In this document: piece after piece, positions 2,690 through 62,900 of the stretch
Numbering within the stretch: the first letter of the stretch is position 1
How the letters are laid out: each line of letters opens with the position of its first letter
DNA from: a virus
Lineage: Duplodnaviria > Caudoviricetes
IMG/VR virus record: IMGVR_UViG_3300021979_000004
Span: 153,983-217,982 of that record
Reading direction: 5' to 3' (one strand)
Length of the DNA stretch: 64,000 nucleotides
Notes under the pieces: model-generated
What the model saw: the letters and a program-made list of their open reading frames with translations, nothing else
Told to the model about the DNA's origin: nothing
Database searches by the model: none
Made by a program: the position numbers and the translations under genes

Positions 2690-2956
2690 ATGACCAGATA
2701 CGTTGAATTGATGACATGTCCGAAGAAAGAAAGTCTATTGCTTGGTATTATAGGTGGACTAGGAAATACATTTGGAATAAAACCAGAACTTCTAAGATTA
2801 ATCTTTAGCGTTATTTTAATAGCTAACTTTGTACTCGGAACAAATGCATTTTGGTTTTTTATTATTTTTTACTTCGTAAGCTTCTTTTTAATTCCCCGAT
2901 ATGAAGAAATGTACGACAGAGCTATTAACCCTGACGCACAACCACCCGAGTTTTAA
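2690..2956 (+). CDS. PspC-domain small membrane protein
   Basis: LLLGIIGGLGNTFGIKPELLRLIF followed by a hydrophobic segment ending LIP resembles the PspC consensus; strong AGGAGG RBS. Confidence 0.65.
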   Translation: MTRYVELMTCPKKESLLLGIIGGLGNTFGIKPELLRLIFSVILIANFVLGTNAFWFFIIFYFVSFFLIPRYEEMYDRAINPDAQPPEF

Positions 2957-3789
2957 AAGTTTTCGCGATACTGTTGGATCATTACCTTGACAGCTTTCTT
3001 CCAAAGATCAGGGTTTTGATCCTTTATACCACTTAGAACTGGTGAAGAGAAATCATCCAAGAATTCAGTAAACCTTTCAACTCTAGCTGAATCATCGCCA
3101 ACAAAGTAGCGCATTAGTTGCATACGGTCATTGTTATTGATATGCAATGATTTGGAAAGGAATTTTATTTTATTTCTAAATGTATTGAACTCAGACTTAA
3201 GGGTAGGTAATAGCTCAACTGCCGACGTTGCATATTTGATATATTCTTCCTGCGAACCATCTTTGGCTTTATGGTTTTGAACTTGTCTAGGATCGACTTT
3301 AGAAAATGCTTTGAATTGAACAAAATGCATAAGCTCATGCTCAACTGTGTTTTCAAATTCGTGTAGTGTGTAATTAATAAAGGATTCTTTTGGTTCTTGG
3401 TCTGCCATCATCATTTTGAGATTGTGAACGTTTAAAGTTAACATGTTTGTATCGTCATCATACCCACCGTAATAATGATCGTTTGTATCAACGATACGAA
3501 TATTGATGAACTTATCTTCCTCAGCAATATTGTATTTAAATTGGTAAGAACCTAACCCAACTTTAGCATTCATGATAACGTTAGAGGTATGGGAAAATTT
3601 TAAACGCTTATGAAGTTCTGGGTATTTTGGATGAATATCGATGGTGCTTAGAAATACATGTCCACTATGCTCGTCATCATTCTTGACCGCCATGAAATCT
3701 ATAACATACGCATAAACGAATTCCATGATATCACTGGTTAGTGTTTCTGGTAAACGAATCATGGATTCAAATAACTGTGTTAAACGCAT
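2953..3789 (-). CDS. Putative internal head protein, zincin-like metallopeptidase (HExxH)
   Basis: MRLTQLFE leader; HELMH motif plus downstream Y..S..E; late promoter upstream; paralog of 4326..5255. Confidence 0.6.
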   Translation of the reverse strand: MRLTQLFESMIRLPETLTSDIMEFVYAYVIDFMAVKNDDEHSGHVFLSTIDIHPKYPELHKRLKFSHTSNVIMNAKVGLGSYQFKYNIAEEDKFINIRIVDTNDHYYGGYDDDTNMLTLNVHNLKMMMADQEPKESFINYTLHEFENTVEHELMHFVQFKAFSKVDPRQVQNHKAKDGSQEEYIKYATSAVELLPTLKSEFNTFRNKIKFLSKSLHINNNDRMQLMRYFVGDDSARVERFTEFLDDFSSPVLSGIKDQNPDLWKKAVKVMIQQYRENF

Positions 3790-3823
3790 TGTAAAAATCC
3801 TTAAACATTAATATTATATGTAT

Positions 3824-3831
3824 TATTTATA
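3824..3831 (-). promoter_or_regulatory. T4-type late promoter TATAAATA
   Basis: Exact T4 late consensus 35 nt upstream of ATG 3789. Confidence 0.7.
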
Positions 3832-3849
3832 GTTTGCAAAATTTTTTAT

Positions 3850-3878
3850 TTGCATATAATATGATGTTGTGTTAGTAT
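3850..3878 (+). promoter_or_regulatory. Sigma70-like promoter
   Basis: TTGCAT-17 nt-TAGTAT upstream of the GGCT gene. Confidence 0.5.
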
Positions 3879-3907
3879 ATACAGGTAAATTGAAATAAGG
3901 TGAAATT

Positions 3908-4318
3908 ATGAGCAACGAAAATCTTGTTTTTGTGTATGGAAGCTTGAAGCAAGGCTACCACAACCATGAAGTTATTTCTTTCGATTTTGATACCCACACT
4001 AAGAATAAAGGGTATGATTATCTGGGTAAAGCAAAAACAGTTGATAAGTTCGCGATGTACGATATGGGATCATTCCCTGCTATCTCATTTGATGAAAACG
4101 GTAAGCAGGTTTCTGGTGAGCTATACGCGCTTGATGATGCGACATTTGATCTTCTGGATACTCTGGAAGGATACCCTGAGCATTATAACCGTAAGCTGGT
4201 TAAGCTTGATGTTGATGAAGACATCGAAGCATGGATTTATTTTTATGATCCTGAGAGTGTCGATGACACAATGGAAATTATCGACATTGAATCTGATGTG
4301 TATGAGTGGGAATATTAA
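3908..4318 (+). CDS. Gamma-glutamylcyclotransferase (AIG2-like/YtfP family)
   Basis: VFVYGSLKQG, VSGELY, LDTLEGYP..Y.R, AWIY motifs. Confidence 0.9.
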   Translation: MSNENLVFVYGSLKQGYHNHEVISFDFDTHTKNKGYDYLGKAKTVDKFAMYDMGSFPAISFDENGKQVSGELYALDDATFDLLDTLEGYPEHYNRKLVKLDVDEDIEAWIYFYDPESVDDTMEIIDIESDVYEWEY

Positions 4319-4325
4319 TTCCCAC

Positions 4326-5255
4326 TTACTTTATTAGGTCTTCAACTCGCTTGTAGAAGTCTTTTACGACTTTCATATAAAGCTTTGGTGTATCTTGCTT
4401 TAGTGCTGAGAAATAATTCTTAGGTGGTATAGTTACAGGCATTGAATGATTGTCTCCCAATTTTATATCAAAACCCTTATCACTTAACGCCACAAACATA
4501 CGGAAAAACTCTTTCTTCTGTTCTTTATCAAACTTCTGCCACCAGTCGTCACCTTCAACGAAACTTCTAAAGTCTTGCTCAAGGTTGGCTAGTTGTGGAC
4601 GAATCTCTGCCGCAGAAGTAAAATAGTCATTGTGTACTTTATCTTCAGAGCGTTCACCTGATCCATAATTCTTTTTCGTAGCTGATTGGTCTTTGTGCAG
4701 CCCAATATCCTGAACCAAGTGCTGAAGCTCATGGTCGATAACACTCTTTAGTTTATTGAATTCAATTTTTACTTTCTTATCACTTTTACCACTTTCATCG
4801 AACCATGCACTTAATACTTCCCCTGAAAGGTCAAAAGCATTAATTAAAACATGGGGAACGCCATCTTTCATTCTGTAAGATGACACATCTTTTTCTCGCA
4901 CCATTACTGAAACATCTATCACAATAGCATCATTCTTAGTAAAGGAATCAACATTGTTTCTAACAAGCTGTGAGCTATGATAGTAAGGAACTTCTTCTGG
5001 ACTCAAAACTGCAATCCCATAATAGTCACGATTTGCTGACATACTACGCTTGAATCTTCCACTAAATTCCATTTCTAACGCATCAACATCGAGTCCCGTA
5101 GTATCTTCTATGACTTCTTTAAATTCGTTAACATCCTTCTCATTGCCACCACGTGCATGAAAATGATATACTGCAAAAACAGCCATACGGAGAACATCTT
5201 CTTTTAGTTCCTCGGGAACTTTGATGGTTCTCTCAAATAGTTGATATAGTTTCAT
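4326..5255 (-). CDS. Putative internal head protein, zincin-like metallopeptidase (HExxH)
   Basis: MKLYQLFE leader; HELQH motif plus YFTSAAE; late promoter upstream; paralog of 2953..3789. Confidence 0.6.
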   Translation of the reverse strand: MKLYQLFERTIKVPEELKEDVLRMAVFAVYHFHARGGNEKDVNEFKEVIEDTTGLDVDALEMEFSGRFKRSMSANRDYYGIAVLSPEEVPYYHSSQLVRNNVDSFTKNDAIVIDVSVMVREKDVSSYRMKDGVPHVLINAFDLSGEVLSAWFDESGKSDKKVKIEFNKLKSVIDHELQHLVQDIGLHKDQSATKKNYGSGERSEDKVHNDYFTSAAEIRPQLANLEQDFRSFVEGDDWWQKFDKEQKKEFFRMFVALSDKGFDIKLGDNHSMPVTIPPKNYFSALKQDTPKLYMKVVKDFYKRVEDLIK

Positions 5256-5276
5256 TAATTATACTCCATTTTATAA

Positions 5277-5297
5277 TATTTATGAAAAACATAAATA
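5277..5297. promoter_or_regulatory. Back-to-back late promoters (CATAAATA on each strand)
   Basis: CATAAATA at 5277-5284 (-) and 5290-5297 (+), each 20-25 nt from a start codon. Confidence 0.6.
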
Positions 5298-5319
5298 CAA
5301 AAGATTAAGGAGACTTGTT

Positions 5320-5679
5320 ATGTTTGATCGACTAATCGCCTTTCAAGAAAATGGCGAATGTTTATATTTTTTCGTACCATTGAATCTTTCTTTAGAACAG
5401 TTCCTAGAGAATGTGAAAATAGAGATAGTATCCAAGAAACGATATAATACTGAGATAAAACATATCAAAAGACAACTGGATAAAGAACAACAAACAATGG
5501 AAAACAAAAGCAATCCAGAAGTAACAAGCGAACAAGCCAAAGTCCTAATAAAAACCTTCGTATCAAATCATCCCTTAGACAATCGATCACCATCAGAAAT
5601 ACTTAAAGACGCAGGAGCCGTTGAGCTTATTTCAAAAATACCACCAAGCAACATTCTTAAATCAGACGAATTGGATTAA
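5320..5679 (+). CDS. Hypothetical late protein
   Basis: AGGAG RBS, late promoter upstream. Confidence 0.55.
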   Translation: MFDRLIAFQENGECLYFFVPLNLSLEQFLENVKIEIVSKKRYNTEIKHIKRQLDKEQQTMENKSNPEVTSEQAKVLIKTFVSNHPLDNRSPSEILKDAGAVELISKIPPSNILKSDELD

Positions 5680-6818
5680 TACCACTCTTCCATACCAAGC
5701 TGTTTGAGTATTATTCTCACAATATTGTTAACATAGCGTTCAAGCTGGTATGATGAAAGATCACGGTTAACTAAATCATGGTGGAACTCTAACGCTTCCT
5801 CTGGGATAGCATCATAGCGATATAGTCCAAATAGTAAGTTACGTAATATCATTTTAACATTATCGCGATCACCACCGAATGGTGCTAAGTCAAGCTCACT
5901 GCCGCCACGTAGCAAGTCTACCAGAATTCTTATTCTATCTCGGTTGGCCTTTAAGAATCTTACCTTCTCTTCTTTTTTCTTTATGATTTCCCACTTAGAT
6001 TTTATGTCTTCGATAAAATCTTCCAGTTTCCTATAACCATTTTGCTTCATAACAGTTATTAGTTTTTTCACACTTTCTGTAGAACCTTTACTATTCATAC
6101 CGGTTTCATTTTGTATGTCAATCATTACTGATCTGGTAAAATCATCATACTTCATTGATCGAAGAGCTTCTTTCGATTCCTTAGAAAGCTCATTTTCAGA
6201 TTTTTTATAGAACAACTCTATTAGGGATGTTATTGTAGATTGACGCTTCGATCTAATACGTGGATGTGATTTCATTTCCCCCCTAAAGGATTTTATTTGA
6301 TCAAAGCTGAGTGCATTCTTTTTGTTATTGCCAATCCAGTCTTTGTTATTATTATAGACATATACTGGAATATCATATTGCTTAGCCAGCTTGTAAATAG
6401 GCAACACGTATGGATTTTCATGTGTGCCATATTCGGTTGCAACCAAAACTGATATTTCTTCTACATAGTTCATAAACGGTATCGAGTCTTTGTCTGTGAA
6501 CAAACGGTCTTCCATTTCATCGTCGCCGGGAACTGATGTACTTCCACTGTTCCAGTAGTCAACAGCTTTTCCCGAATAGGTATTGTTTAGCTTCGAACCA
6601 TTAACTTTAAAAAGAACGCCACTATTTGAATCAACATGATAACCGCCCAAGCGTGAGCGTGTAAGGGACATGAAGTAAAACTTTTTCGAACCCATTTGCC
6701 TTTCAACCTTTCCTTTTATAGTAGGCGTAAGGTTGATCTTATTTTCTTTCATAATGCTATGGGCACTTTTGAGGGAAGTGTAATAAAATAATGTGTTGGT
6801 TAAACTTTCTATCAGCAT
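5676..6818 (-). CDS. Putative internal head protein, ADP-ribosyltransferase-like fold
   Basis: MLIE leader; LFYYTS..SI, FMSLTRS and EMEDR strands resemble the ART core; AATAAATA upstream. Confidence 0.45.
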   Translation of the reverse strand: MLIESLTNTLFYYTSLKSAHSIMKENKINLTPTIKGKVERQMGSKKFYFMSLTRSRLGGYHVDSNSGVLFKVNGSKLNNTYSGKAVDYWNSGSTSVPGDDEMEDRLFTDKDSIPFMNYVEEISVLVATEYGTHENPYVLPIYKLAKQYDIPVYVYNNNKDWIGNNKKNALSFDQIKSFRGEMKSHPRIRSKRQSTITSLIELFYKKSENELSKESKEALRSMKYDDFTRSVMIDIQNETGMNSKGSTESVKKLITVMKQNGYRKLEDFIEDIKSKWEIIKKKEEKVRFLKANRDRIRILVDLLRGGSELDLAPFGGDRDNVKMILRNLLFGLYRYDAIPEEALEFHHDLVNRDLSSYQLERYVNNIVRIILKQLGMEEWY

Positions 6819-6839
6819 GATCTATTCCTATTTTATAGG

Positions 6840-6889
6840 TATTTATTAAAATACTTTATGACCTAAATATTAAAAAGTTGTTATAAATA
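6840..6889. promoter_or_regulatory. Divergent late promoters
   Basis: AATAAATA at 6840-6847 (-) and TATAAATA at 6882-6889 (+). Confidence 0.6.
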
Positions 6890-6907
6890 ACTGAAAAGGT
6901 ATATAGT

Positions 6908-7901: not shown

Positions 7902-7958
7902 ACTTAGCTCCTTATAGTGTCGGTTACATATTAGCACGATAAGAATCTTGCGGTCAAC

Positions 7959-25610: not shown

Positions 25611-25650
25611 TACTCCTAAGTTTAATAAATAAAGTAAAGACTTAGGAGTA
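25611..25650 (+). promoter_or_regulatory. RBS-sequestering hairpin with late promoter in the loop
   Basis: 11-bp stem TACTCCTAAGT (25611-25621) / ACTTAGGAGTA (25640-25650) covers the AGGAG RBS; AATAAATA at 25624-25631 in the loop. Confidence 0.7.
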
Positions 25651-25654: not shown

Positions 25655-27013
25655 ATGCATAACTTATCGTCATTTGTGGAATCGGTTTCTTCTCTTTACG
25701 AAGGTGTTTCTTTTGGAGAAAAACAGATCAATGACATCCTTTCCCGTTCAAATGATTTCAATGTTGGTATAGAATATGAAATGCGTTTTGAAGAAGGTGT
25801 AGGCGCGGAACAAGTTATCGATATTCTAAACAAATATAATATTGAATATGATTCCGTTGTCACTGAGCATGACGATATGATGGAAATTATCACACCAAAG
25901 TTCTCTCTGTCTGAGGGAATATCTCACATCAAATCTATGTTTTCTCTAATCAAATCCGAAGGTATTGAAGTACCTGAAATGGCAGGTATGCATATTTCTA
26001 TTTCAACAAATAAGTACAGCCTTGAGGATTTCAACCATCTAAAGTTTTTAATTCTATTAGACAGTGATTACGTTCACAGTATATTTCCAGAAAGGGAACA
26101 TGTTGTAAACTATAACAAGTATATAAAAACTATGTTACAGAATCTACCTAGTAGTTTGATGAGAACAAAGAAAGATGTAGAAAATATAGAATGGCGTGTA
26201 ATGACTGAACTTGACACTGCAAAATATGTTACTGCGGCTGTCAAGGATTTCTTTACCAGTGACGGTAGAATAGAGCTACGCTTTATAGGCGGTGAAAACT
26301 ATGATCAAATGTATGATGATATTAAAATACAACTTTTAAGATCATTGCTCCTTATGGAGGTTGCCTATACTGATCTTTATGATAAAGTCTATTATAAAAA
26401 GCTTTCTGAGTTTCTTGAGCAAGACAGTTCAATGGTACGTTTAAAGAAACAAGCGTTTGAAATTATACGTAATGGTACTCCTAAAGAAGCATATCAACTT
26501 ATAGAAAAAAATAAAACTGAGTTCATAAGCAATATTGTACCAGAAAAGATTAGAGACAAACTGGAAAATGTGATAGCAAAAGACCCTAAGCGTTCGGTTG
26601 CATATGCCAGAAACATTCTCAATTCAGAATTCAAGAAAGCTGAATCTGTGATAGCAAAAGACCCTGTGTCGGCATTGCTATACGCTATGCATTTAAGAGA
26701 GCCATTCCCCGAAGGTGAAGATGCAATAGCGACTGATGGTGCTACAGCATTACAGTATGCAAGGATGGCATTGCGCGGAAGGTTTGAAAAGGGTGAGAAA
26801 GAAATAGCCAAACATCCACAACGTAGCTATAACTATGCCAAGCATGTATTAAAGGGTCGTTTCCCTGAAGGTGAAGACGCTATAGCTTCAGAACCAGATA
26901 CCGCATTGCGGTATGCAATCTACGTACTAGATGATCGATTTGAAAAAGGTGAGGAAATGATTAAACGTAGTGATCATTGGGAAGCCTACAAAGAAATGTA
27001 TATAAAGGATTAA
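25655..27013 (+). CDS. Putative amidoligase (COOH-NH2 ligase, GS/GCL-like fold) with C-terminal helical repeats, paralog 1
   Basis: FNVGIEYE, EHDDMMEIIT, GMHISIS, KY, GRIELRF motifs; about five 25-26-aa repeats; LYE-G leader end. Confidence 0.65.
   Translation: MHNLSSFVESVSSLYEGVSFGEKQINDILSRSNDFNVGIEYEMRFEEGVGAEQVIDILNKYNIEYDSVVTEHDDMMEIITPKFSLSEGISHIKSMFSLIKSEGIEVPEMAGMHISISTNKYSLEDFNHLKFLILLDSDYVHSIFPEREHVVNYNKYIKTMLQNLPSSLMRTKKDVENIEWRVMTELDTAKYVTAAVKDFFTSDGRIELRFIGGENYDQMYDDIKIQLLRSLLLMEVAYTDLYDKVYYKKLSEFLEQDSSMVRLKKQAFEIIRNGTPKEAYQLIEKNKTEFISNIVPEKIRDKLENVIAKDPKRSVAYARNILNSEFKKAESVIAKDPVSALLYAMHLREPFPEGEDAIATDGATALQYARMALRGRFEKGEKEIAKHPQRSYNYAKHVLKGRFPEGEDAIASEPDTALRYAIYVLDDRFEKGEEMIKRSDHWEAYKEMYIKD
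26582..26968 (+). repeat. Tandem ~25-26-aa helical repeats (DP..A..YA..L..RF..GE..IA)
   Basis: About five units visible in the translation and partly at DNA level (gaaggtgaaga(t/c)gc). Confidence 0.75.
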
Positions 27014-27014: not shown

Positions 27015-27809
27015 ATGAAAATAAAAGATATTTTAACTGAGTCTCGCATAGATAATCTTTCCAAAGAAGAGTTTCAAAAGCTTTTAGAAACGGATTACTC
27101 TCAAGCCTATGAGCAATTCAAGAGAGGTAATGTCCTTTATCGTGGGTTTGGTAGTATGGAGATTGCATATAACCGTTTACAGCCTATGAGAGGACGTGAG
27201 AGCATCAATACAAACAATTTCTATACGCTGATCATGAACAACGATCCTCGCTTCAGAGAGTTTCCTAAGCGCTCTGTGATTGTTTCTAGTAATAGAAATA
27301 CAGCCATTTCATTTTCGTCCGACGATAGTACGTCTGCTATTATTTTCCCTAAGAATGGTGCAAGAATTGGTATGTGTAATGCTCCTGATATATGGAGAGC
27401 AAAGCCAGTTGAAGTTCAGGCTAAAGGCTTTGCGTTTTATGAAATAGGTAGAATGATTGCCAAGCTCTATAAATGGTTGGGTACAAGTCCTGCTATCATT
27501 ACTGAATATGAAGAAATGTTAGAAATGCAAAAGAAGTTTGAGCAGATGAAAAAAGAAGACAGTGATGAGTTTGTATTAGCAATGTCACACTATAAAAATC
27601 ATCTTGAAAGTTACAATCTTCAACATGCCCTTATCGAAGATTTAATTGAAAAGGGACCGAAAGGATTGTATGAATTAATTAATACCAGTCCTTTTACATT
27701 ATTTGACGTTTCTAATATGAAACCTAAAGAAAATAATGAACTATGGTTTGATGATGAATATCTAGCTATTAGTTTAAGTCTAGCCAAGAAGATGTTTGGG
27801 GATCAATAA
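27015..27809 (+). CDS. Putative internal head protein, R-S-E type ADP-ribosyltransferase-like
   Basis: MKIKDILTE leader; LYRG, VSSNRNTA and C-terminal NELWF...YLAI; paralog of 40318..41256. Confidence 0.5.
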   Translation: MKIKDILTESRIDNLSKEEFQKLLETDYSQAYEQFKRGNVLYRGFGSMEIAYNRLQPMRGRESINTNNFYTLIMNNDPRFREFPKRSVIVSSNRNTAISFSSDDSTSAIIFPKNGARIGMCNAPDIWRAKPVEVQAKGFAFYEIGRMIAKLYKWLGTSPAIITEYEEMLEMQKKFEQMKKEDSDEFVLAMSHYKNHLESYNLQHALIEDLIEKGPKGLYELINTSPFTLFDVSNMKPKENNELWFDDEYLAISLSLAKKMFGDQ

Positions 27810-36873: not shown

Positions 36874-38573
36874 TGCATGATTTAAACAAACTTTTAAATG
36901 AATCTTATAAGCTAGAAGAAGGCGCTAAGTTTGGGCAGAAAGAAGTAAATGATATTCTTTCTCGTTCTGGTGACTTTAACATTGGTATCGAGTATGAGTT
37001 CAATATTGATCGAGAACGTTATGATCCTGATGATGTCAGACCATTGTTACAAAAAGGTTTTGGGATAGAGCATATCTATAGTGTCGTCGGTGAACATGAT
37101 GAAATGACTGAGGTCATTACTGAAAAAATGAACTTAAAAGATGCTATCACTAACATAAAAGGAATGTTTAAATTTCTTAGTAGTGATCTAGCTGAAGTTA
37201 GAAGTTTTGCAGGATTACATATCTCTATTTCTTCAAATAAGTATGACATGAGTGATTTCAATAAGTCTAAGTTTATGGTTATGCTTAACTCTGAATATAT
37301 CCACAAACTCTTCCCCGAGCGTAGGCATGTTAATGACGTAAGCAAATACATATCCAATGCTATGAAAAAATTTAAAAGATATAATAAAGGTAGAGCATTT
37401 ACTGAAGATACTATAGATACTATCGAAAGTATTATTTCAGATACCTTAGATACAAAATACATAACTGCTACGCTAAAAGACTTTAATATGATGGATGGCC
37501 GCATTGAGTTGAGGTTCTTTGGCGGTGAGAACTATCAAAATATGTATGCTGATATTAAACAACAGATGTTACGTGCTTTGTTTATAATGGAATTGGCATA
37601 TACTGACCTGTATCAGAAAGAGTATTACAAAGAGCTTTATAAATTTATTAAAGCTGATGATAGTTCAATAGAGTTAGATAGAAAAGATAAAAAAGATTTA
37701 TTGTCAGCATTGTCTAATGAAAATTCAAGCAGGGTATTGGATATTCTGAAAAGGGTTTCTGATAGATTAGACCCACAAGAAACCTATGAAGGTTTAGATA
37801 GTGGTATGCAAAAGAGAATAAAGAATCTATTTAAGAAAACCCCAGATAGTGCATTTGAATTTGCAGAAGAAGTTATGCAAGGTAGGTTCGAAGAAGGTGA
37901 ACCAGTAATTGCTGAGAATGCAAGAACTTCGTATTTTTATGCTCTACTTAACCGTGAGAGATTTGATGAAGGTGAAGAAAAAATGTTTGAAGAATTAGAC
38001 CTTCACGAAATAGAACATTATGTTAATGCAATAAGTCAATTCAACAACTATGATAAATTAGAAATTATCGAAATGATCAACAACATGCCTCAAAGTCTTA
38101 TGGAAAACTTAGTGGCAACAGTTATGGATAATAGAGGCGAAGAATTAACTCAGGAAATGGGCGAAAAAATATTTGCTCTAAGTGCACGTTCGGCAGAATT
38201 TGCGGTTGAATATTTGTTAAATGAGTCTGACGTTAGAAACGCAAATACATATGCTTATACTTTTAATAATGAATATTTGAAAACCTATGAAACTTCTTTA
38301 ATCGATGAAGAAGATATAATGGAGCGTGTAAGAAACGAAAAAAGCCCAAGTACAATTGAAGACATGGTGTCTAATGTTTATCTTTCAGATGAACAAAGTA
38401 TTGAAATAATCGATCAAATATATAATACGTTCAAGAAAGTTGGGCTAGGTATTGATGAAGATGGTCATGTTGATATGCGTGTTGGTAGAATGATTAGTGA
38501 CACTATTGCGAATAAGAGTCCAACTGTTAAAGAATATTTTGAAAATAAAATAGGACAATTAATGAGGGAATAA
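36873..38573 (+). CDS. Putative amidoligase with helical repeats, paralog 3
   Basis: FNIGIEYE, EHDEMTEVIT, GLHISIS, KY, GRIELRFFGG; LEE-G leader end. Confidence 0.65.
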   Translation: MHDLNKLLNESYKLEEGAKFGQKEVNDILSRSGDFNIGIEYEFNIDRERYDPDDVRPLLQKGFGIEHIYSVVGEHDEMTEVITEKMNLKDAITNIKGMFKFLSSDLAEVRSFAGLHISISSNKYDMSDFNKSKFMVMLNSEYIHKLFPERRHVNDVSKYISNAMKKFKRYNKGRAFTEDTIDTIESIISDTLDTKYITATLKDFNMMDGRIELRFFGGENYQNMYADIKQQMLRALFIMELAYTDLYQKEYYKELYKFIKADDSSIELDRKDKKDLLSALSNENSSRVLDILKRVSDRLDPQETYEGLDSGMQKRIKNLFKKTPDSAFEFAEEVMQGRFEEGEPVIAENARTSYFYALLNRERFDEGEEKMFEELDLHEIEHYVNAISQFNNYDKLEIIEMINNMPQSLMENLVATVMDNRGEELTQEMGEKIFALSARSAEFAVEYLLNESDVRNANTYAYTFNNEYLKTYETSLIDEEDIMERVRNEKSPSTIEDMVSNVYLSDEQSIEIIDQIYNTFKKVGLGIDEDGHVDMRVGRMISDTIANKSPTVKEYFENKIGQLMRE

Positions 38574-39241: not shown

Positions 39242-40321
39242 TTACATATCTTCGTCTTCGTCTTCCATTTCACTTTCGATTTCGTCTACATAATCCCTAT
39301 ACTCTTCAACAAACTCAGAAACTGTGTATTCATTATAGTCACCAACTAATGATCTAGCATCTATATCATCCATACTAAAACCGTGCACGTCCATGACTGC
39401 TTGGGTTTTCAAGTTTTCTTCATTTAGATAAATGGATTCAAACATAGTTGCTGGTATTCTACCTAGATATCCAAAGACACCAAGCTTAGTGTTTAGGGAA
39501 GATTTATCACGCACTTGATCTAATTGATCTTTAGGTACAAAAGATGTCAAATTTGTTTTAAAGGTAAGATTGCCATCAGTCGCATACTGCATAATATCAT
39601 CATAACCAAGACTCATAGTAAGCTCATGCTCATAACCATAAACATCAATAGCTACATCATAGTCAAGTATTAGCTTATCTACATCTGGAATCTTTAGTTT
39701 TATTACAACTGGAAAAGAATCATTATTAGCAGCAGATGTGTTAGCATGGAAGTCGGCACGTTCTGGATTTAAAGTGACGAATACCTTACCGCTATGTTGA
39801 ATCTTATCATAATTGGTTTTACCTTCCTGTGGGCGAATACCAGTCTTTATGATTTTCTTAAGAGCGTTTAGATCAGTTCCATGATAGAAGAATTTCTCTG
39901 ATAGAGGCTTTAAAAATTCTTCTTTAGTCTGTTCGTACTCAAATTCATATTCATTGTCAGAACTGAAGTTAACTCCCTGTACAATAACTTTCTCAATATC
40001 TAATTCGTCCATGATCTTTAGGAGCGTCTTAGAAGCTGTAGAATGTCTATAGTTACCATCCCCAATAAGGTAAAGCGCACCGTTTAAAATCCTGCCCATA
40101 ACGATATCAGGGTACGTGTCGTCTGCCATATCACCATTCAGGTCATAGATATCTGCATATTCGGGGAATCCGTCTTCACGTTCGGCATTTAATGTATCAT
40201 ACATGTCTTGATAGACTTCAGTTTGTTCTTCAACATCTTCATTATCTAGCAACCAAAGATGTTGTTTATAACCAATAGCAAACTCGCCTTCGCCTTTTTT
40301 AAATAACTCATTTAATTTCAC
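39242..40321 (-). CDS. Putative internal head protein, H-Y type ADP-ribosyltransferase-like
   Basis: MKLNELF leader; FYHGT...I...GI.P...VFVT....A..HA...VIKLKI. Confidence 0.6.
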   Translation of the reverse strand: MKLNELFKKGEGEFAIGYKQHLWLLDNEDVEEQTEVYQDMYDTLNAEREDGFPEYADIYDLNGDMADDTYPDIVMGRILNGALYLIGDGNYRHSTASKTLLKIMDELDIEKVIVQGVNFSSDNEYEFEYEQTKEEFLKPLSEKFFYHGTDLNALKKIIKTGIRPQEGKTNYDKIQHSGKVFVTLNPERADFHANTSAANNDSFPVVIKLKIPDVDKLILDYDVAIDVYGYEHELTMSLGYDDIMQYATDGNLTFKTNLTSFVPKDQLDQVRDKSSLNTKLGVFGYLGRIPATMFESIYLNEENLKTQAVMDVHGFSMDDIDARSLVGDYNEYTVSEFVEEYRDYVDEIESEMEDEDEDM

Positions 40322-41256
40322 TTCAATAATCTCCTTATAAATTCTTCACCGTCGTCACTCATTGGTACTATGTAATACTCTTTGCACTGAAAGACTATTT
40401 CAGAACGTTTAATACTGTCTGTGATCTCATCTGCTACGATAGACTTTCTGAAGGTATCAATGGGCGTGAAAAGATCATCAGTTTCCAAGGTGTGTCTAAG
40501 TCTTGAGAACAAATCAAATACGTCCCTATAAACTCCCTGTGCCATAGAATCTGCTTCTTCTGAAGGGTGAACGTCTAAAAGATCATCGGCTTCATCTACA
40601 ATACGGTCGAGTAAAATAATATCTTTCTGAACCATTTCCATCGGATGTGATAAGATATCTCGGATTTTGTCTATCAATGTGAAAAGTTTAGAAATAAATT
40701 CCTCACCTCTTTCATGAAATATCTTATCAACATTATTGAAAAGATATTCTTTTTGATGCTCTAGGCCGATTGCGTAGTCATACACCCTATCAATTTCATA
40801 AGACACTTCAGCTAATCGATTCAAAGATTCATTGTTTACGTTGATATCACCATTGGTGACGTTTGAATAATAATGGTAACGATAGTTACCTTTAGGAATA
40901 AAGTAGTACCAATCATCTACGCCCACACCATCAAAATCACTAGGATCAAAAGCAATGGTGGAAACTGCATACTGGTATCTGGATGGAATGTCATGGTCTT
41001 TTAGATAACGCTCTAATGAAGTTTGAAAAAGATCATTGTAAAATATGTTGCCATGCGCTTCACGATAGGACATGGTAGGAATGACATGCATTTCGTCATA
41101 GGGCAGATCATCATTACCACGATATATAAAAAGACCTTTCTTTAGGAACTCGTTGATAAACTTAGATGAATTTTTCTTAACACTTTCGATAACCTCTTCA
41201 CTGAGGAAATCTTCTGTACTAGCGTCAGCATATTCGAGTAGATGTTTTATTTTCAT
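40318..41256 (-). CDS. Putative internal head protein, R-S-E type ADP-ribosyltransferase-like (start MKIKHLLE)
   Basis: GAAGGT RBS before ATG 41256; IYRG, AVST, C-terminal SEIVF...YYIV; paralog of 27015..27809. Confidence 0.5.
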   Translation of the reverse strand: MKIKHLLEYADASTEDFLSEEVIESVKKNSSKFINEFLKKGLFIYRGNDDLPYDEMHVIPTMSYREAHGNIFYNDLFQTSLERYLKDHDIPSRYQYAVSTIAFDPSDFDGVGVDDWYYFIPKGNYRYHYYSNVTNGDINVNNESLNRLAEVSYEIDRVYDYAIGLEHQKEYLFNNVDKIFHERGEEFISKLFTLIDKIRDILSHPMEMVQKDIILLDRIVDEADDLLDVHPSEEADSMAQGVYRDVFDLFSRLRHTLETDDLFTPIDTFRKSIVADEITDSIKRSEIVFQCKEYYIVPMSDDGEEFIRRLLK

Positions 41257-41281
41257 AAATAATACCTTCATTTTATAGTAT

Positions 41282-41289
41282 TATTTATG
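41282..41289 (-). promoter_or_regulatory. Late promoter CATAAATA
   Basis: 25 nt upstream of ATG 41256. Confidence 0.65.
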
Positions 41290-41877: not shown

Positions 41878-43569
41878 TTACTCTTCTTTTTCTTTGAAGT
41901 ACTCCAACTCAATATCGTTTTCTCTAAAGGCTTCTTCAATAACTTCGTCAGTAAGCATACTTTCATCAAAATCCATATAACCATAATATGGCTGCTCGAC
42001 TTTGAAGTGATCACTAATCTCTTCTTCAACTGGCTCACTACCTCTAGTAAGACTATCGACATAATTATATACGTCATTGTTTTTAACTTCAAAGTCCTTA
42101 CCTTCAGCAAACTCATAATACTTCATATCTTCGAAATGCAGTTCATTCGTAAAATCAGTTACAGCACTTTGAACATTATCTACCAGTTCGGCCATTGATC
42201 CAGATTCGTATGCGTCACTGTTTAAGCGATCTAACGCTGTTTTAACATCATCTGCTACTTCGCGGATAATCTCATCAAGATTATCTTCTACGTATTCGAT
42301 ATCATACTCATCCTCTTCAATAGCCATTGAATCTATTATATCTTCTTTATACAAGTTGTAAATATGTAGAGTAACAGAATCCTGAATCTTACCTATGAAA
42401 TGGTCTTCCATAAAGCCTTTATAATTATCAATTTCAGGCGCATTAAAAAAGTCAAAATAACCGTCTCGAATAGTTGATAATTCAGGAGCAGCATTTTCTA
42501 ATCCGTTATAAACTTTGAATTTACCATCTTCAGTATCATAATGGATTTCATAATCAGGACCGTTGTAATAGTCACTTAATATGTTATCAACTATATCCAC
42601 AACCTTCTTAGGCGATCCCTCACCTTGCTTAAATTTTTCCATTTCTTTTTTAAGGGGAAGTAGCTGATTACCTTCTAGGTCAATAAATTCATCGCCTTTG
42701 ATTTCACGAAGTTCCTTAAGCATATGGTCTGGTAAATCATCAAGCTCAAAGTTATGTTCTGGTTCATATCCACCGCCAATAACACCTTCAATAATAGGAA
42801 GCTTTAAAAGCTCAAAAATATATTGATGATATCTTTCAGCAGGCTTTTCATTGGCACGGCCTTTCATTTCACCCAAGAAACCATCATTGTATATAAATGT
42901 TAGATGTGGCTTGAAATATGTTTGACCATCCACATCAACTTTGGTTCTTAAAGAAAAGACACGATCCCCCGGCTTTTCAGAAGGTTGATTGCCACAATGA
43001 CCCATAGCATCTGCTTCATCACCACATGATCCTTTGCCTAAGTCATACCAAGCTATCTTACCAAAGTCTATCAGAACTTTTTCTGTACCATTCTTAGGTA
43101 TTAGATTTTCTTCACTTAGTTCAACGAATTCTTGCTCAAGCTCTCGTAAATCTTCAATAGGTGTTCTAGCATTCGTCGGATTATAATTTTGAATTTTTGA
43201 ATAGTTGATGCCTGTAAGGTGAGATAGATAATCAAAAACTTGAGACGCTTTATAGTCTTTATACTTAGCTTTTTTAAGTAATGATTGATCCCCAATTTCA
43301 TCAGAAACCGAATCAAGCATGTTTGATTTTAGTACATCGGCAAGAAATGTTTTCCAAGTGTTGGGGAAGTCTTGAAATTCGGAAGATGATTTATATTTTT
43401 TCCAAACTTTTTGAGTGGTTCTAATTATAGGACCGATCTGTTCCATATAATCAGCATATTTAGCTTTAATACTTTCTACGGATTGTTTCAGAAGGTCATC
43501 ACCTCGACCTTCTGATAAAAGCATTGCGTCATCGATAACTGAACGTAAGTCTTTCATTGATAGTGACAT
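41878..43569 (-). CDS. Putative internal head protein with PcfJ-like domain
   Basis: LLSE-G leader end; WYDL....C..EADAMGHCG ... FSLR ... EMKGRANEKP resembles PcfJ-like domains; late promoter. Confidence 0.5.
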   Translation of the reverse strand: MSLSMKDLRSVIDDAMLLSEGRGDDLLKQSVESIKAKYADYMEQIGPIIRTTQKVWKKYKSSSEFQDFPNTWKTFLADVLKSNMLDSVSDEIGDQSLLKKAKYKDYKASQVFDYLSHLTGINYSKIQNYNPTNARTPIEDLRELEQEFVELSEENLIPKNGTEKVLIDFGKIAWYDLGKGSCGDEADAMGHCGNQPSEKPGDRVFSLRTKVDVDGQTYFKPHLTFIYNDGFLGEMKGRANEKPAERYHQYIFELLKLPIIEGVIGGGYEPEHNFELDDLPDHMLKELREIKGDEFIDLEGNQLLPLKKEMEKFKQGEGSPKKVVDIVDNILSDYYNGPDYEIHYDTEDGKFKVYNGLENAAPELSTIRDGYFDFFNAPEIDNYKGFMEDHFIGKIQDSVTLHIYNLYKEDIIDSMAIEEDEYDIEYVEDNLDEIIREVADDVKTALDRLNSDAYESGSMAELVDNVQSAVTDFTNELHFEDMKYYEFAEGKDFEVKNNDVYNYVDSLTRGSEPVEEEISDHFKVEQPYYGYMDFDESMLTDEVIEEAFRENDIELEYFKEKEE

Positions 43570-43601: not shown

Positions 43602-43609
43602 TATTTATA
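43602..43609 (-). promoter_or_regulatory. T4-type late promoter TATAAATA
   Basis: Exact consensus upstream of ATG 43569. Confidence 0.7.
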
Positions 43610-58642: not shown

Positions 58643-58643
58643 A

Positions 58644-58700
58644 TATAATTCCCTCATTTTTTCTTATATGTTTATATTTATAGAAAATGAGGGAATTATA
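58644..58700 (-). promoter_or_regulatory. RBS-sequestering 17-bp hairpin with late promoter in the loop
   Basis: TATAATTCCCTCATTTT (58644-58660) / AAAATGAGGGAATTATA (58684-58700); TATAAATA on - at 58675-58682. Confidence 0.85.
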
Positions 58701-58708
58701 GTTCAGTA

Positions 58709-58954
58709 TCAGGATCGTTTATATTTTTCTAAAAGACGTAATTGTTCTTCTGATAACGTTTCCGTGTCTATTTCAACGTCAATATATTCAGAACCGTCAA
58801 GACACTTACCTGTGCCGGGAGGTCCAGCTAGAAGAAGATGTGGGAACTCTTTCTGATGTACCCATTCTTCGATTTTACTTTTAATGTGATCGTCTACAAA
58901 AACAAAACCGTCCAATGTTTTCGGACGGTACTTTTTATACCATAGTTGCTTCAT
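58709..58954 (-). CDS. N-extein of the clamp-loader AAA+ subunit (50 aa) fused to split-intein N fragment (31 aa)
   Basis: LWYKKYRPKTL...PHLLLAGPPGTGK (RFC box II and Walker A), then CLDGSEYIDV (intein block A, Cys1 at 58802-58804), then stop. Confidence 0.92.
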   Translation of the reverse strand: MKQLWYKKYRPKTLDGFVFVDDHIKSKIEEWVHQKEFPHLLLAGPPGTGKCLDGSEYIDVEIDTETLSEEQLRLLEKYKRS

Positions 58955-59024
58955 TACTTTACCTCTTACGTTTCTATATAAGGTATCATTGAATTGTTAG
59001 TTGTCAATACACAATCTTAAAACT

Positions 59025-59049
59025 AAAAAGTGGCCTAAAGGCCACTTTT
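59025..59049. terminator. Intrinsic terminator
   Basis: AAAAGTGGCC-TAAA-GGCCACTTTT at the end of groES; a TTGACA promoter for the clamp-loader gene lies just beyond it. Confidence 0.75.
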
Positions 59050-59374
59050 ATATACTATCGTTTATAACGACATCATCAGGTTTTTCATCTGAAACAGCAA
59101 GGATACTTTTATATTCGATCATCCAAAAATCTTTAATCTCACCGGCTTCGTCTTTATCACGAAACTTATGAGTCCAGCGTCCATGCTCCACAAGTACCCA
59201 CATTCCCTTTGAAACAAGTTCGGCCTTCTCACCGGTTGTATAAACCTTTGCCCATCTTGCGCGAATTCCGTGTGTTTTACCATCATCATCGCGTAGAATA
59301 ATACCTGATTTTGTTTTACGTTCACCGTGTTCAAGGTCGGTGGCTATGACTCGATCACCAAAGGTTTCGATCAT
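59048..59374 (-). CDS. groES: GroES-like co-chaperonin (Cpn10)
   Basis: GDRVI...ERKTKSGIIL mobile loop, V...G....V..G..VL, ..ILAV. Confidence 0.8.
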   Translation of the reverse strand: MIETFGDRVIATDLEHGERKTKSGIILRDDDGKTHGIRARWAKVYTTGEKAELVSKGMWVLVEHGRWTHKFRDKDEAGEIKDFWMIEYKSILAVSDEKPDDVVINDSI

Positions 59375-59763
59375 TCTTCACCCCCATCAGTTTTATCGTC
59401 TGATGGTGCACTGTCACCAGAATCTTCTTTTTTGGTGTCAGATTCTTTAACAGTTTGAGTGTTTTGTGTTGGCTTACTTTCAGTCTTTTTCTGAGTTGCG
59501 GCCTTTTTCTTAGTCACTGAACTAAGATCAGGCAAGTCTTCATCAACCTCATCTAGTAGTGATGACTTAATAACACTGTTACTGACATTGCGGTTATAGT
59601 CACGCGCTCTGTCTTCTTTAGATTGTTTGATTCGACCTTTCTCATCAAGGATATCACCACGAGCATTCATGTTGGCATTACCAACCGCCTGTTCTTTATC
59701 TTTTCCTTTGATAATATCGTCAAAATCTACAACTTTACCTTTATATGTTCTACTTTTTGCCAT
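59371..59763 (-). CDS. Conserved phage protein upstream of groES
   Basis: RTYKGK.VD...AVGNANMNARGD.L pattern; acidic low-complexity tail. Confidence 0.6.
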   Translation of the reverse strand: MAKSRTYKGKVVDFDDIIKGKDKEQAVGNANMNARGDILDEKGRIKQSKEDRARDYNRNVSNSVIKSSLLDEVDEDLPDLSSVTKKKAATQKKTESKPTQNTQTVKESDTKKEDSGDSAPSDDKTDGGEE

Positions 59764-59788
59764 GCTTATTTACCTCATGTTTTTATTT

Positions 59789-60328
59789 TTATTTGAAAAA
59801 CTCTTTATAGTCAATATCGTAATCTAAAGGATTGACTTTATTTATACCAATTAAATACAGGGTAAAACATGCTACCGAGCTACCACGTCCTACTCCCCAT
59901 ACAATACCATTCTTTCTCATAACGTCAACCAAGTAAATCATAAGATTTATAATAATAACCTGATCACGTTTTAGAAACTCTTCCAGTTCCTGAATAAGCC
60001 TAACCTTTTCTTTTTCCGATTTGCATTTTTTAGAAAGATAATCTACCACATCGATGTTTCTATATTCCTTCGGAATCAACCAAGTTTCGGATAAACGTTC
60101 GAAGTAGTTTTCTACGTTCTCTCTCTTTTTCGGAATCTCATAAAAGCTTTTTGGCTCAGAGCCAAATTCTCTACAACTGTTATTGTATTGCTCAACTTCA
60201 TCGTTATCGGTCAAGAAACAGCCACTAACATCCTCACCCGATAACATAGCCTCAACAACATCTTCAGTAGAAAGTACGACTCTACCATATTCATCGATAG
60301 AGTCTATAAGCTTTTGATTTTTAATCAT
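59789..60328 (-). CDS. Stand-alone DnaE (Pol III alpha)-like fragment
   Basis: GVGRGSSVA..TLYLIGI..VNPL.Y.I.Y.EFF matches the DnaE palm-proximal motif; ends before the catalytic PDID aspartates. Confidence 0.75.
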   Translation of the reverse strand: MIKNQKLIDSIDEYGRVVLSTEDVVEAMLSGEDVSGCFLTDNDEVEQYNNSCREFGSEPKSFYEIPKKRENVENYFERLSETWLIPKEYRNIDVVDYLSKKCKSEKEKVRLIQELEEFLKRDQVIIINLMIYLVDVMRKNGIVWGVGRGSSVACFTLYLIGINKVNPLDYDIDYKEFFK

Positions 60329-60329
60329 G

Positions 60330-61313
60330 TTACAGCCTTACAATAGTTGGTCCACTCTTAGGTGGCTCTTCATCATCGTCACTATCATCCGAAGATTCAG
60401 GTTCTTCTGTTCCAATACCCTTAACTTTTTTCATACGGTCCATGATGGAATTTCGAATAGTACCTTCAGTGTCATCATAGTCACCAAACATACTACCGTC
60501 AGAAATTGACTCCAATGCTTCCTGAAGATCAAACCCTAAGCTGTCTGCTAGCGCTTGAATCTCTTCTAATAGCTCTCTAGGAATCTCACCACTTTCTTTA
60601 TACTCTTCTAAAATTTTCTGCGCCAAACTAATATCTTCTTCGAGGGTTTCAGTCTGTTTATTAATCGCTTCCATATCAACACCTAGATCAATATTGTAAG
60701 CCACCAATTGACCTAGTTCTTCTTCCGTAAGATCATCAATGTTATTGAAGAAGTCGCGTAGCTCACCTGTTGGACGCTTCCACCAAGGATTAGTCATAAC
60801 AATTTCTTCACCTTCTTCAAGAGCTTGTCCCAACATTTCATTGATTGCACCTACCCATGACTCTTCGTCAACCAGAGGATTTTCTTCATTAAGTGATTTT
60901 AGGTCAAGATCAACCTGAACATCCATAGGTACTTGAGAAACAAACTTAAATGATGTGAGTTCCATACTATCGCCTAAGATAGCCTGAACTTTGTAGAACA
61001 TGAACACTGCAAACTCATACGCAGTGAAGTGTGTCACTGGCATTTCAATAGTTGGTAAATTGATATCGCCAGTTACAAACTTTGATGTTGACTGAGAAAA
61101 GCTAGACAATGCGAGTGATCCATGAATGTTTGATAGGAAATTGCTAGCGGCTTTAATCTTCTCACTGCTTGTGATACCATAAAGCATTTTTAGTCCAAAT
61201 TCAAAATGACCCACATAAGTTTTAATACCAAGCACGTCATCCTCAAACATAAGAATGGCAATTGGGTCAGTTTTATAATTGAATGTGGACTTAATAATAG
61301 TTTCTTTTTTCAT
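60330..61313 (-). CDS. Hypothetical acidic protein
   Basis: 327-aa ORF in operon with the DnaE-like gene. Confidence 0.6.
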   Translation of the reverse strand: MKKETIIKSTFNYKTDPIAILMFEDDVLGIKTYVGHFEFGLKMLYGITSSEKIKAASNFLSNIHGSLALSSFSQSTSKFVTGDINLPTIEMPVTHFTAYEFAVFMFYKVQAILGDSMELTSFKFVSQVPMDVQVDLDLKSLNEENPLVDEESWVGAINEMLGQALEEGEEIVMTNPWWKRPTGELRDFFNNIDDLTEEELGQLVAYNIDLGVDMEAINKQTETLEEDISLAQKILEEYKESGEIPRELLEEIQALADSLGFDLQEALESISDGSMFGDYDDTEGTIRNSIMDRMKKVKGIGTEEPESSDDSDDDEEPPKSGPTIVRL

Positions 61314-61630
61314 GAAACACCTTTTATAATTGTTTTAATATTGTTTCGTAATTCTTCACTAAGCACTTTGGATTGAAATGTAGAAAAGGCACGTTCTTTC
61401 AAAGCACTGTTGTTGACACCATAATGTGAATCTGTATCTGTTTTAACACGGATACCATGTTTTGACAATTCCAAAGACACGATATATTGTTTACTTGCTC
61501 CATATTGCTGATAAACATTGTATCTAATCTTAGTTACATAATCATTTTCATAGCTTGCATTAATAGAAATAAACCGATTGTTACCAATGTGGGTCTTCTT
61601 GGATACGATTGTGCCTTTAGGTTTATTCAA
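61310..61630 (-). CDS. Hypothetical protein
   Basis: 106 aa; GGAGG RBS; 4-nt overlaps. Confidence 0.55.
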   Translation of the reverse strand: MNKPKGTIVSKKTHIGNNRFISINASYENDYVTKIRYNVYQQYGASKQYIVSLELSKHGIRVKTDTDSHYGVNNSALKERAFSTFQSKVLSEELRNNIKTIIKGVS

Positions 61631-61932
61631 GTATTTCCTCCTATTTTATATGTTTGGGTTAAATCGAAAACAGACAACTCTTTTAAAGTTTCATTACCTT
61701 CACCATCTTTTACAATTTCAAGAGGTGGTTTTTCAAATGCTTTTTTCATCAGATCAAGTGATTGAAAAGCGTCATTGAAATCTTCGAATCCTTCAAGTGT
61801 TATTGCATCCTTAGTCCAAGCATTAGGTATCAGGTCTTTGTCATAATAAACCTCATGAATGGCAAAGGATTTTATTTCCTCACCATTATACATTGTATAT
61901 GTGCTTCGTATTAATCTGTAATTCCAAGACAT
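61627..61932 (-). CDS. Conserved small phage protein (WNYR...IHEVYY)
   Basis: MSWNYRL...FAIHEVYYD pattern. Confidence 0.6.
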   Translation of the reverse strand: MSWNYRLIRSTYTMYNGEEIKSFAIHEVYYDKDLIPNAWTKDAITLEGFEDFNDAFQSLDLMKKAFEKPPLEIVKDGEGNETLKELSVFDLTQTYKIGGNT

Positions 61933-61936
61933 TATA

Positions 61937-62449
61937 TTACCTTATAAAATAGAATCGGTATTCGCCAGTTAAAGCCAGTACTGATCCACTAAGAACTGAA
62001 ATCTTAACACTGAATCGGTTTATGTCAACCCTCATATAAGCCGAAGGGATGGGTACAACATCCCATCCTACACTAAGATGTTCTTTGTATCCGGTTGTCA
62101 TCAAAAGCTCTGCACCAAAAGAAATATACTGGTTAGGCTCATACAAATCCTTATGAATACCAATAGCATAAGACTCTTCGTAATATGAATTATTGAATCT
62201 TGCAAAGCTCACCTTATAATCGTTCTTCAAATAGAACTTGATAGAGAAGTAATCATTCGTTTCATTATAATCACGTTGTAATCCAGTACTATCATCACCA
62301 AATGTTTGTCCAAACAAATGCTTGGTATAAAGTCCTGTAACAACAGAAACAGATTCTGCCTCAAAAAATTCATCAATATAGCTACCGGCATGTGAAGCCA
62401 ATGGGAGCATAAAGATGAGAATTGCAATAATTAACCTCGTAAATCGCAT
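61937..62449 (-). CDS. Outer-membrane beta-barrel protein, PagP-like
   Basis: Signal peptide ending ASHA; TKH, YNE.N, FNNSY, TGY motifs; alternating beta-strands; aromatic-rich C-terminus. Confidence 0.55.
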   Translation of the reverse strand: MRFTRLIIAILIFMLPLASHAGSYIDEFFEAESVSVVTGLYTKHLFGQTFGDDSTGLQRDYNETNDYFSIKFYLKNDYKVSFARFNNSYYEESYAIGIHKDLYEPNQYISFGAELLMTTGYKEHLSVGWDVVPIPSAYMRVDINRFSVKISVLSGSVLALTGEYRFYFIR

Positions 62450-62468
62450 GTTTATATCCTCTATGTAG

Positions 62469-62476
62469 TATAAATA
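62469..62476 (+). promoter_or_regulatory. T4-type late promoter TATAAATA
   Basis: Only 7 nt before ATG 62484. Confidence 0.65.
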
Positions 62477-62483
62477 CTATACC

Positions 62484-62900
62484 ATGAAAGCTAAAGATTT
62501 GGAAGAAAAGAAGCTTGTCTTTGGGCCAATGACCTACATCTATTGGGAATATAAAGACTTAATTATAACAGCTTTTAATAATACATCATTGACATTCCAC
62601 CTATCGAATAACGGTGGCATGGATGGTATTATCTTTCCAAAACTAACTAACATAGATGTATCTGAAGTAATCGATGGTGTAAAAATGGTCATAGACCTTA
62701 TGGATCAATCTGCACAAACCTATCAAGGTGCACAATCTGAATTCATGGGTTTCTTCTTATTACAAATGCACTACGGCGAGAATCCTGTTGAGAAAATAGA
62801 AAACCTTTCATCAAGGAACATAACCGTTGAACATATAGGTGAAACCAAAACTGCCGGTATAAGCTTTTACAAATATCAAATACAAATAAGGAAGGGTTAA
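62484..62900 (+). CDS. Hypothetical late protein (MKAKDLEE leader)
   Basis: Late promoter upstream, terminator downstream. Confidence 0.6.
   Translation: MKAKDLEEKKLVFGPMTYIYWEYKDLIITAFNNTSLTFHLSNNGGMDGIIFPKLTNIDVSEVIDGVKMVIDLMDQSAQTYQGAQSEFMGFFLLQMHYGENPVEKIENLSSRNITVEHIGETKTAGISFYKYQIQIRKG

Follow-up and report, generated by a model that had tools for sequence, protein, structure and literature searches.

In bacteriophage T4, IPI, IPII and IPIII (the internal proteins), together with Alt and gp24, reportedly carry gp21-cleaved propeptides that constitute a capsid targeting sequence, a system said to have been described by Mullaney and Black in 1996. The tag of the T4 internal proteins is MKTYQEFIAE (PMC8442874), and propeptides also direct proteins into the prohead core (PMC5694885). 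In the T4 record, gp24 begins MAKINELLRE/S and Alt begins MELITELFDE (here and below, a slash marks the junction after Glu). Here, we analyse similar N-terminal leaders, ending in L-x-E, that are encoded in a window of 64,000 nucleotides (IMG/VR record IMGVR_UViG_3300021979_000004, positions 153,983 to 217,982); this window is the whole stretch of DNA analysed and forms the final 64 kb of a viral contig of 217,982 bp. Judging from the sequences, it is quite probable that these leaders are T4-type capsid-targeting propeptides cut by the phage's own gp21-family protease, and the phage probably carries an enzyme kit, comprising approx. 20 tagged enzymes, inside its capsid.

The likeness to T4 extends over several features. 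The leader is N-terminal, approx. 8-20 residues long, hydrophobic at positions i, i+3 and i+4, and ends in [L/I]-x-E; T4 propeptides closely resemble MKINELLNES of Salicola phage SCTP-2 and MKIKHLLNES and MRLTQLFES of the phage studied here. As in T4, expression appears to be late, from a TATAAATA-type promoter (recognised here from sequence motifs), a Peptidase_S77 protease is found in a head module ordered 20-(67)-(68)-21-22-23, and one class of cargo has the ADP-ribosyltransferase (ART) fold, as does Alt. The phage differs from T4 in its lineage, as it is an SCTP-2-like jumbo phage of approx. 350 kb, known here from its genes alone, and not a member of the Straboviridae; in the number of tagged genes, which is approx. 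15-21 in the 62% of the genome seen, compared with a handful in T4; and in its zincin-like and amidoligase-like cargo. By tail sheath, its closest cultured relative is SCTP-2 (54% identity), followed by PA5oct-like Pseudomonas jumbo phages (approx. 38%) and then by Sinorhizobium phage Phosso and the E. coli jumbo phages A4 and EJP2.

The phage also resembles phiKZ, 201phi2-1 and SPN3US, in which many head-internal proteins are processed after Glu by a gp21-related protease and packaged with the DNA (PMC5694885). In these giants, however, the sites are of the A/S/G-x-E type and the propeptides are mostly longer than 100 residues, whereas those described here are short and T4-type, with Leu or Ile at P3; outside the core head genes, the phiKZ-like giants are unrelated to this phage. 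Agrobacterium phage Atu_ph07 encodes gp204 as its gp21 homologue (PMC6102473 Table S3), and its authors regarded a virion cluster, coding sequences (CDS) 31-76, as unique structural proteins (PMC6102473); their paper presents gp53-63 as hypothetical structural proteins and mentions neither the leader nor an ART-like fold. The mechanism is already known from T4 and mass protein packaging from phiKZ-like phages; the novelty lies in the lineage, the scale and the types of cargo.

A T4-like leader on predicted late proteins

A sequence-only reading of the window had listed 11 genes whose products begin with short leaders ending in L-x-E, and all 11 N-termini read as quoted. Taken as one set, they are heterogeneous: four leaders are canonical (starts 3789, 5255, 27015 and 41256) and six are [LI]-x-E junctions conserved within their families (6818, 25655, 35050, 36873, 40321 and 43569), whereas the one at 62484 is a weak case. 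For the open reading frame (ORF) 40318-41271, the start at 41256 (MKIKHLLE/Y) chosen in that reading is the better one; the start codon of 39242-40321 is GTG. The genes are listed below, with bit scores from the SCTP-2 weight matrix described further on.

2953..3789, minus strand: HExxH protein of 278 amino acids; canonical leader MRLTQLFE/S; HELMH at 151; 16.1 bits with the SCTP-2 matrix
4326..5255, minus strand: HExxH protein of 309 amino acids; canonical leader MKLYQLFE/R; HELQH at 175
5676..6818, minus strand: protein of 380 amino acids; very short leader MLIE/S; the Atlas points weakly to the DarT/DUF952/DUF2971 fold group
25655..27013, plus strand: amidoligase-like protein of 452 amino acids; leader of 16 residues ending SLYE/G
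27015..27809, plus strand: protein of 264 amino acids with a weak ART-like fold; canonical leader MKIKDILTE/S; R43 and E242 conserved
35050..36873, plus strand: amidoligase paralogue of 607 amino acids; leader of 19 residues ending ILIE/G
36873..38573, plus strand: amidoligase paralogue of 566 amino acids; leader MHDLNKLLNES..KLEE/G, with a canonical LLNE-S followed by the E-G junction
39242..40321, minus strand: protein of 359 amino acids with a C-terminal ADP-ribosyltransferase fold; leader KLNE/L; invariant H-G-T
40318..41256, minus strand: protein of 312 amino acids; canonical leader MKIKHLLE/Y; I-Y-R-G motif
41878..43569, minus strand: protein of 563 amino acids; leader of 20 residues ending MLLSE/G
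62484..62900, plus strand: ORF of 138 amino acids, a weak candidate; start MKAKDLEE/K fits the loose pattern; 1.6 bits with the SCTP-2 matrix

Bare L-x-E occurs within the first 22 residues in 20.5% of N-termini, compared with 12.2% of internal 22-residue stretches, in a proteome that is rich in Leu, Ile and Glu. As the bare motif is frequent by chance, a single case proves nothing. The enrichment check proposed with the sequence-only reading turned out in its favour: L-x-E lies within 22 residues of the start in 40% of late-promoter genes, compared with 18% of the remaining genes (Fisher p=8e-4). A sharper form of the leader, M-[KRL]-[ILVA]-x-x-[LIV]-x(1,2)-E, is present at 15 of 341 predicted N-termini, compared with 0.55 expected from its internal frequency, and is spread over approx. 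12 unrelated families (mature parts clustered by BLASTP). This strict form marks 10 of the 47 late-promoter genes and 5 of the 294 others (p=1.8e-6); at least three of these five genes, which have no late promoter of their own (starts 16858, 57542 and 180997), immediately follow a gene that has one.

The sharper pattern was written post hoc, from a listing of all N-termini, and because the data had already been seen, it was tested independently on SCTP-2, where 20 of 504 N-termini carry the same leader (0.83 expected). Moreover, when a weight matrix was trained on SCTP-2 leaders only, with the Met-Lys start left out, 12 genes of the present genome reached at least 7.6 bits, and at 8 bits there were 8 genes, compared with approx. 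0.5 expected. The codons for Leu, Glu, Lys and Arg within the leaders differ synonymously, which argues for selection on the peptide and not on the DNA. The leader genes include three paralogous families, A (seven members), B (five) and C (two, the family of 27015-27809). In an hhalign comparison that included the leader in the alignment, families A and C matched with a probability of 78%, which suggests that 27015-27809 may have distant relatives in family A, whose members lie in other parts of the genome.

It had also been claimed that each gene has, or is co-transcribed from, a late promoter (NATAAATA), and such a site is indeed found 15-42 nt upstream of each gene or ahead of the operon to which the gene belongs. 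The sites are at 3831 (minus), 5284 (minus), 6847 (minus), 25624 (plus), 34383 (plus), 41289 (minus), 43609 (minus) and 62469 (plus), the first seven of which are as follows.

3824..3831, minus strand: TATAAATA late-promoter-like site, 42 nt ahead of start 3789
5277..5284, minus strand: CATAAATA site, 29 nt ahead of start 5255
6840..6847, minus strand: AATAAATA site, 29 nt ahead of start 6818
25624..25631, plus strand: AATAAATA site, for both 25655-27013 and 27015-27809, two abutting genes
34383..34390, plus strand: GATAAATA site, heading the operon 34416-35042, 35050-36873 and 36873-38573
41282..41289, minus strand: CATAAATA site, 33 nt ahead of start 41256 and also serving 39242-40321
43602..43609, minus strand: TATAAATA site, 40 nt ahead of start 43569

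Sites of this kind stand 5' of head, tail and leader genes alike, and the leader genes are predicted to be expressed late, together with the head genes. At the weak candidate 62484-62900, for which an SCTP-2 homologue was searched and none was found, TATAAATA lies at 62469 on the plus strand, 15 nt 5' of the ATG, and there is no ribosome-binding (Shine-Dalgarno) site; transcription from this site would give a nearly leaderless mRNA, unless the start is mis-assigned. A different shared N-terminus, M-A-[VA]-K-I-[FY]-N, is present on four late-promoter genes (window 32788-33273, minus strand, and 34416-35042, plus strand; genome 73735 and 119527), and two others begin M-G-[IV]-[KR]-F-Y-G (genome 79384 and 85066). 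Both groups are probably additional families of paralogous late proteins, perhaps of the tail or baseplate.

Conservation of the leader in related phages

The leader is kept in SCTP-2 orthologues that are only 25-43% identical, as in the pairs MRLTQLFES and MRLAKLYES, MRLSKLLLET and MRLTNLIESN, and MLIE/S and MNLNE/S. In particular, the SCTP-2 orthologue of 2953-3789 begins MRLAKLYES and that of 5676-6818 (40% identity) begins MNLNE/S; the homologue of 40318-41256 begins MKIKQLLES and that of 41878-43569 (38% identity) has the canonical MRLNNLFES. ORF117 of phage XacN1, a homologue of the HExxH protein, begins MKTSFRQFLAES and contains HELQH. In 27015-27809, residues M1, K2, T8, E9 and S10 are kept in 10 metagenomic homologues, down to 33% identity, and all 23 homologues of 39242-40321 have leaders of 5-16 residues and an [LIV]-x-E junction in which the Glu is invariant. 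A homologue of the latter in KVP40, a true T4-like phage, begins MKNLKSFMEELQSLNE/V. As the sequence-only reading had observed, conservation among the amidoligases begins right after the Glu: the invariant block starts exactly at E-G, behind leaders of 7-19 residues, and P3 is Leu or Ile in all six sequences, two of which are from SCTP-2.

Elsewhere in the genome (37615-38208, minus strand), a protein of 197 amino acids begins MMKITDLILFES/YKDA; in SCTP-2 there are at least five homologues, 243-648 amino acids long. These homologues have in common an N-terminal ..LFES/YKDA or ..LLES/YKDA module, and four of them begin MKV[KT]HITQYLFES. By sequence, the module resembles a shared, tagged N-domain to which different C-terminal parts have been joined.

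In Atu_ph07, 12 leader-bearing CDS are found among gp1-132 (gp43 and gp53-63), and all 12 are in the virion table, compared with 45 of the 132 overall (PMC6102473 Table S5). The gp53-63 cluster resembles the window in that it contains homologues of 27015-27809 with the same leader and a Y-R-G motif, and these have been detected in virions by mass spectrometry. Proteins gp56-59 begin M-[KR]-W-x-Q-L-x-E. The product of 27015-27809 matches gp58 by tblastn at 1e-8, and another part of the same record gave a further match; identity to the Atu_ph07 homologues is approx. 33% over half the length of the window protein.

Head module, protease and use of putative cleavage sites

Within the 218-kb contig, profile searches with PF03420 and PF07068 gave no match, though the controls gave none either, and tblastn with SCTP-2 head proteins gave none, because the head module lies outside the contig. 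The contig is 100% identical, over the 4,795 bp compared, to the ENA scaffold ERZ23499121 TREM19-1 scaffold_1 (351,510 bp), which also encodes an identical tail sheath, and the offset is constant (contig position minus 102,500 gives scaffold position). On these grounds, the contig is taken to be approx. 62% of the 351.5-kb scaffold genome, and the phage is an uncultured, marine, SCTP-2-like jumbo phage of approx. 350 kb. Another contig, of 360,972 bp, was set aside as it turned out to be a different but related phage, and with 20 kb as the query, megablast matched nothing in the phage collection.

The head module lies at scaffold 216,765-237,412, in the 133 kb beyond the contig. The SCTP-2 gp21 homologue matches Pfam Peptidase_S77 (4.9e-24), and the scaffold protease was reached via a cluster member of this homologue on the 351.5-kb scaffold. 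The module there is ordered Portal_T4, a 66-amino-acid protein, an acidic protein of 176 amino acids, Peptidase_S77, a protein of 450 amino acids and Gp23, which corresponds to the T4 order 20-67-68-21-22-23, the 21-22-23 part of which was seen directly. The leader-bearing phage is thus predicted to encode a gp21-family (Peptidase_S77) prohead protease. The 66-amino-acid protein begins MKLGDLTES, and the protease itself begins MRPSQILTE.

The distribution of potential cleavage sites differs between the head proteins. The scaffold-like protein of 450 amino acids (L033:10667-12019) has 29 [LIV]-x-E sites, or 0.064 per residue compared with 0.019 genome-wide, and this density fits a core protein degraded by the protease. 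The Gp23-family capsid protein (L033:12046-13230) has its three sites at residues 7, 20 and 35; the other 359 residues contain none, compared with approx. 6.7 expected. Moreover, the T4 gp23 cut site FLTE/A aligns with VVLE/N of the SCTP-2 capsid protein. The use of sites in the scaffold-like protein and their avoidance in the capsid protein give a clear signature, which fits an [LIV]-x-E specificity.

The core of the sequence-only reading, namely that a gp21-type cleavable leader marks late proteins for the capsid, is therefore supported by the likeness to T4 propeptides, the Peptidase_S77 protease, the use of its sites, the leaders of orthologues and the Atu_ph07 virions. Proteins made late would be drawn into the assembling prohead core by the leader consensus M-K-I-x-x-L-L-(x)-E, and cleavage by the gp21-family serine protease would follow the Glu of [L/I]-x-E, leaving the mature enzyme in the head with the DNA. 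Core binding, cleavage, packaging, ejection into the next host and action on it are all steps that we infer. By analogy with T4 Alt and the T4 internal proteins, ejection of the cargo and its action on the host would be a reasonable extension, though a tentative one.

The predicted cargo

The cargo encoded in the window would comprise two metalloprotease-like proteins with HExxH, three amidoligases resembling glutamine synthetase, at least two ART-fold proteins and three proteins (5676-6818, 40318-41256 and 41878-43569) that bear no function label. The zincin label given earlier to 2953-3789 and 4326-5255 agrees with the presence of HExxH in both; as the motif is conserved in homologues, they are putative zincin metallopeptidases at the motif level only. 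Both match a PHROG annotated as virion structural protein.

Two proteins had been considered in connection with the ART and PcfJ labels. For 39242-40321, a PcfJ-like identity is rejected, as the protein has no Pfam match whatever at E ≤0.01 and its fold is that of an ART: Foldseek relates it to pertussis S1, PltA, cholera A1, Tpt1, DarT and Arr (E 1.3e-4, probability 1.0), H147-G-T is invariant in 23 homologues, and an Atlas lead to DarT/PARP/Arr agrees. In its model, this protein thus appears to have an ADP-ribosyltransferase fold with a conserved NAD-site motif and is a putative enzyme. The ART-like label is weaker for 27015-27809, the model of which (pLDDT 88) leaves leader residues 1-7 disordered and outside the fold. 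A Foldseek search of this model against the PDB gave no match at E ≤0.001, and in a VIA search the best matches were ART-fold proteins (Arr, diphtheria toxin, cholix, PARPs and Tpt1), all weak (Z 3.3-5.6). It was also tried as a T4 Alt orthologue and rejected (BLASTP E 0.22).

The amidoligase label is borderline. For 25655-27013, the Pfam profile PF12224 (Amidoligase_2) scores 21.8 bits against a cut-off of 22, and the two other paralogues (35050 and 36873) have no match to this profile; the Atlas backs the label, with feature and structure neighbours of the amidoligases in Amidoligase_2 and Gln-synt_C (glutamine-synthetase) clusters.

Several other genes of the phage were noted. A nicotinamide phosphoribosyltransferase is encoded at genome 83519-84883 (minus strand; PHROG 2e-171), and the occurrence of NAD salvage beside many ART-fold proteins may be no coincidence. 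A gene for a ClpP-like protease lies at genome 93539-94135 (minus strand), as indicated by its N-terminal sequence and the SCTP-2 annotation of Clp genes. Two paralogues of 170 amino acids (window 61937-62449 and genome 27978-28490, both minus strand) have signal-peptide-like N-termini (e.g., MRFTRLIIAILIFMLPLASHAGS) and may be secreted or phage lipoproteins.

Alternative explanations

The leaders could be genuine prohead-protease propeptides on proteins that are assembly or structural parts (of the core, inner body, decoration or whiskers of a complex jumbo virion) and not ejected enzymes. This is unlikely. In its favour, the same leader is found on the 66-amino-acid head-module protein and on the protease itself, the closest leader belongs to T4 gp24, a shell protein, several cargo proteins fall into no recognisable enzyme family, and the structural assignment of CDS 31-76 by the Atu_ph07 authors points the same way (PMC6102473). 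Against it, catalytic-type features are conserved, namely the HExxH of two window proteins and XacN1 ORF117, the H-G-T of the ART fold and the amidoligase core, and there is a direct precedent in T4 Alt, an ART that is packaged and injected (T4 record note). Far less probable is that the shared N-terminus tags some process unrelated to the capsid, such as recognition by phage Clp proteins, enhanced translation initiation, or membrane or pole targeting. Homologues of ClpP, ClpX, ClpA and ClpS do occur in the phage and its relatives, and well-expressed genes commonly have MK-rich, A/T-rich starts, but the conservation is at the amino acid level, with synonymous codons, and the motif ends in a gp21 site, matches T4 propeptides and stands on head-module genes, and its carriers are in Atu_ph07 virions. 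Scarcely credible is a combination of chance and paralogy, in which L-x-E is simply common in this proteome and similar N-termini stem from gene duplication. It is true that 12% of internal stretches of 22 residues contain L-x-E and that families A, B and C are paralogous, with A and C possibly distantly related; even when one member per family is counted, however, approx. 12 cases remain against 0.55 expected, the leader is common to different folds (HExxH, amidoligase and two ART types), and it is replicated in SCTP-2 and Atu_ph07, with the result of the SCTP-2-trained matrix also contradicting chance.

Several points weigh against the packaging of leader-bearing enzymes by way of a T4-type propeptide. 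Some leaders are very short (MLIE and KLNE), and the one at 62484 is doubtful. Depletion of [LI]-x-E from the mature portions of the leader-bearing proteins is only mild (0.0099 compared with 0.0131 per residue). The phage is uncultured and known here from sequence alone, and the protease and cargo genes are joined solely by the sequence identity of the contig and the metagenome scaffold. The Atu_ph07 positives are mostly of one paralogue family (gp53-62), so that they amount to approx. three independent cases, and come from a dataset that reports no N-termini; presence in a virion is, moreover, no proof of a head-internal location or of ejection.

Implications for jumbo phages

If capsid packaging of the leader-bearing enzymes is taken further, the lineage that includes SCTP-2, Atu_ph07, XacN1 and marine relatives might have turned the head-loading tag of T4 into a delivery system for general use. 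Each capsid would then carry over 20 different enzymes, including approx. ten ART-fold paralogues, zincin-like proteases and amidoligases, which would be injected to modify host proteins or nucleic acids and to disarm defences before phage gene expression, a proposal to which we would give somewhat less than an even chance.

If the proteins are packaged, they amount to a ready inventory of effectors injected by a little-studied clade of jumbo phages, and the ART-fold proteins, metalloproteases and amidoligases would be candidate agents of host takeover at a very early stage or of anti-defence. Packaging would also give an identity to the many "hypothetical virion proteins" of Atu_ph07 and related phages. 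The leader of 8-9 residues is a simple marker for predicting packaged cargo from metagenomes, and, in relatives that can be cultured, it could be used as a portable tag for packaging.

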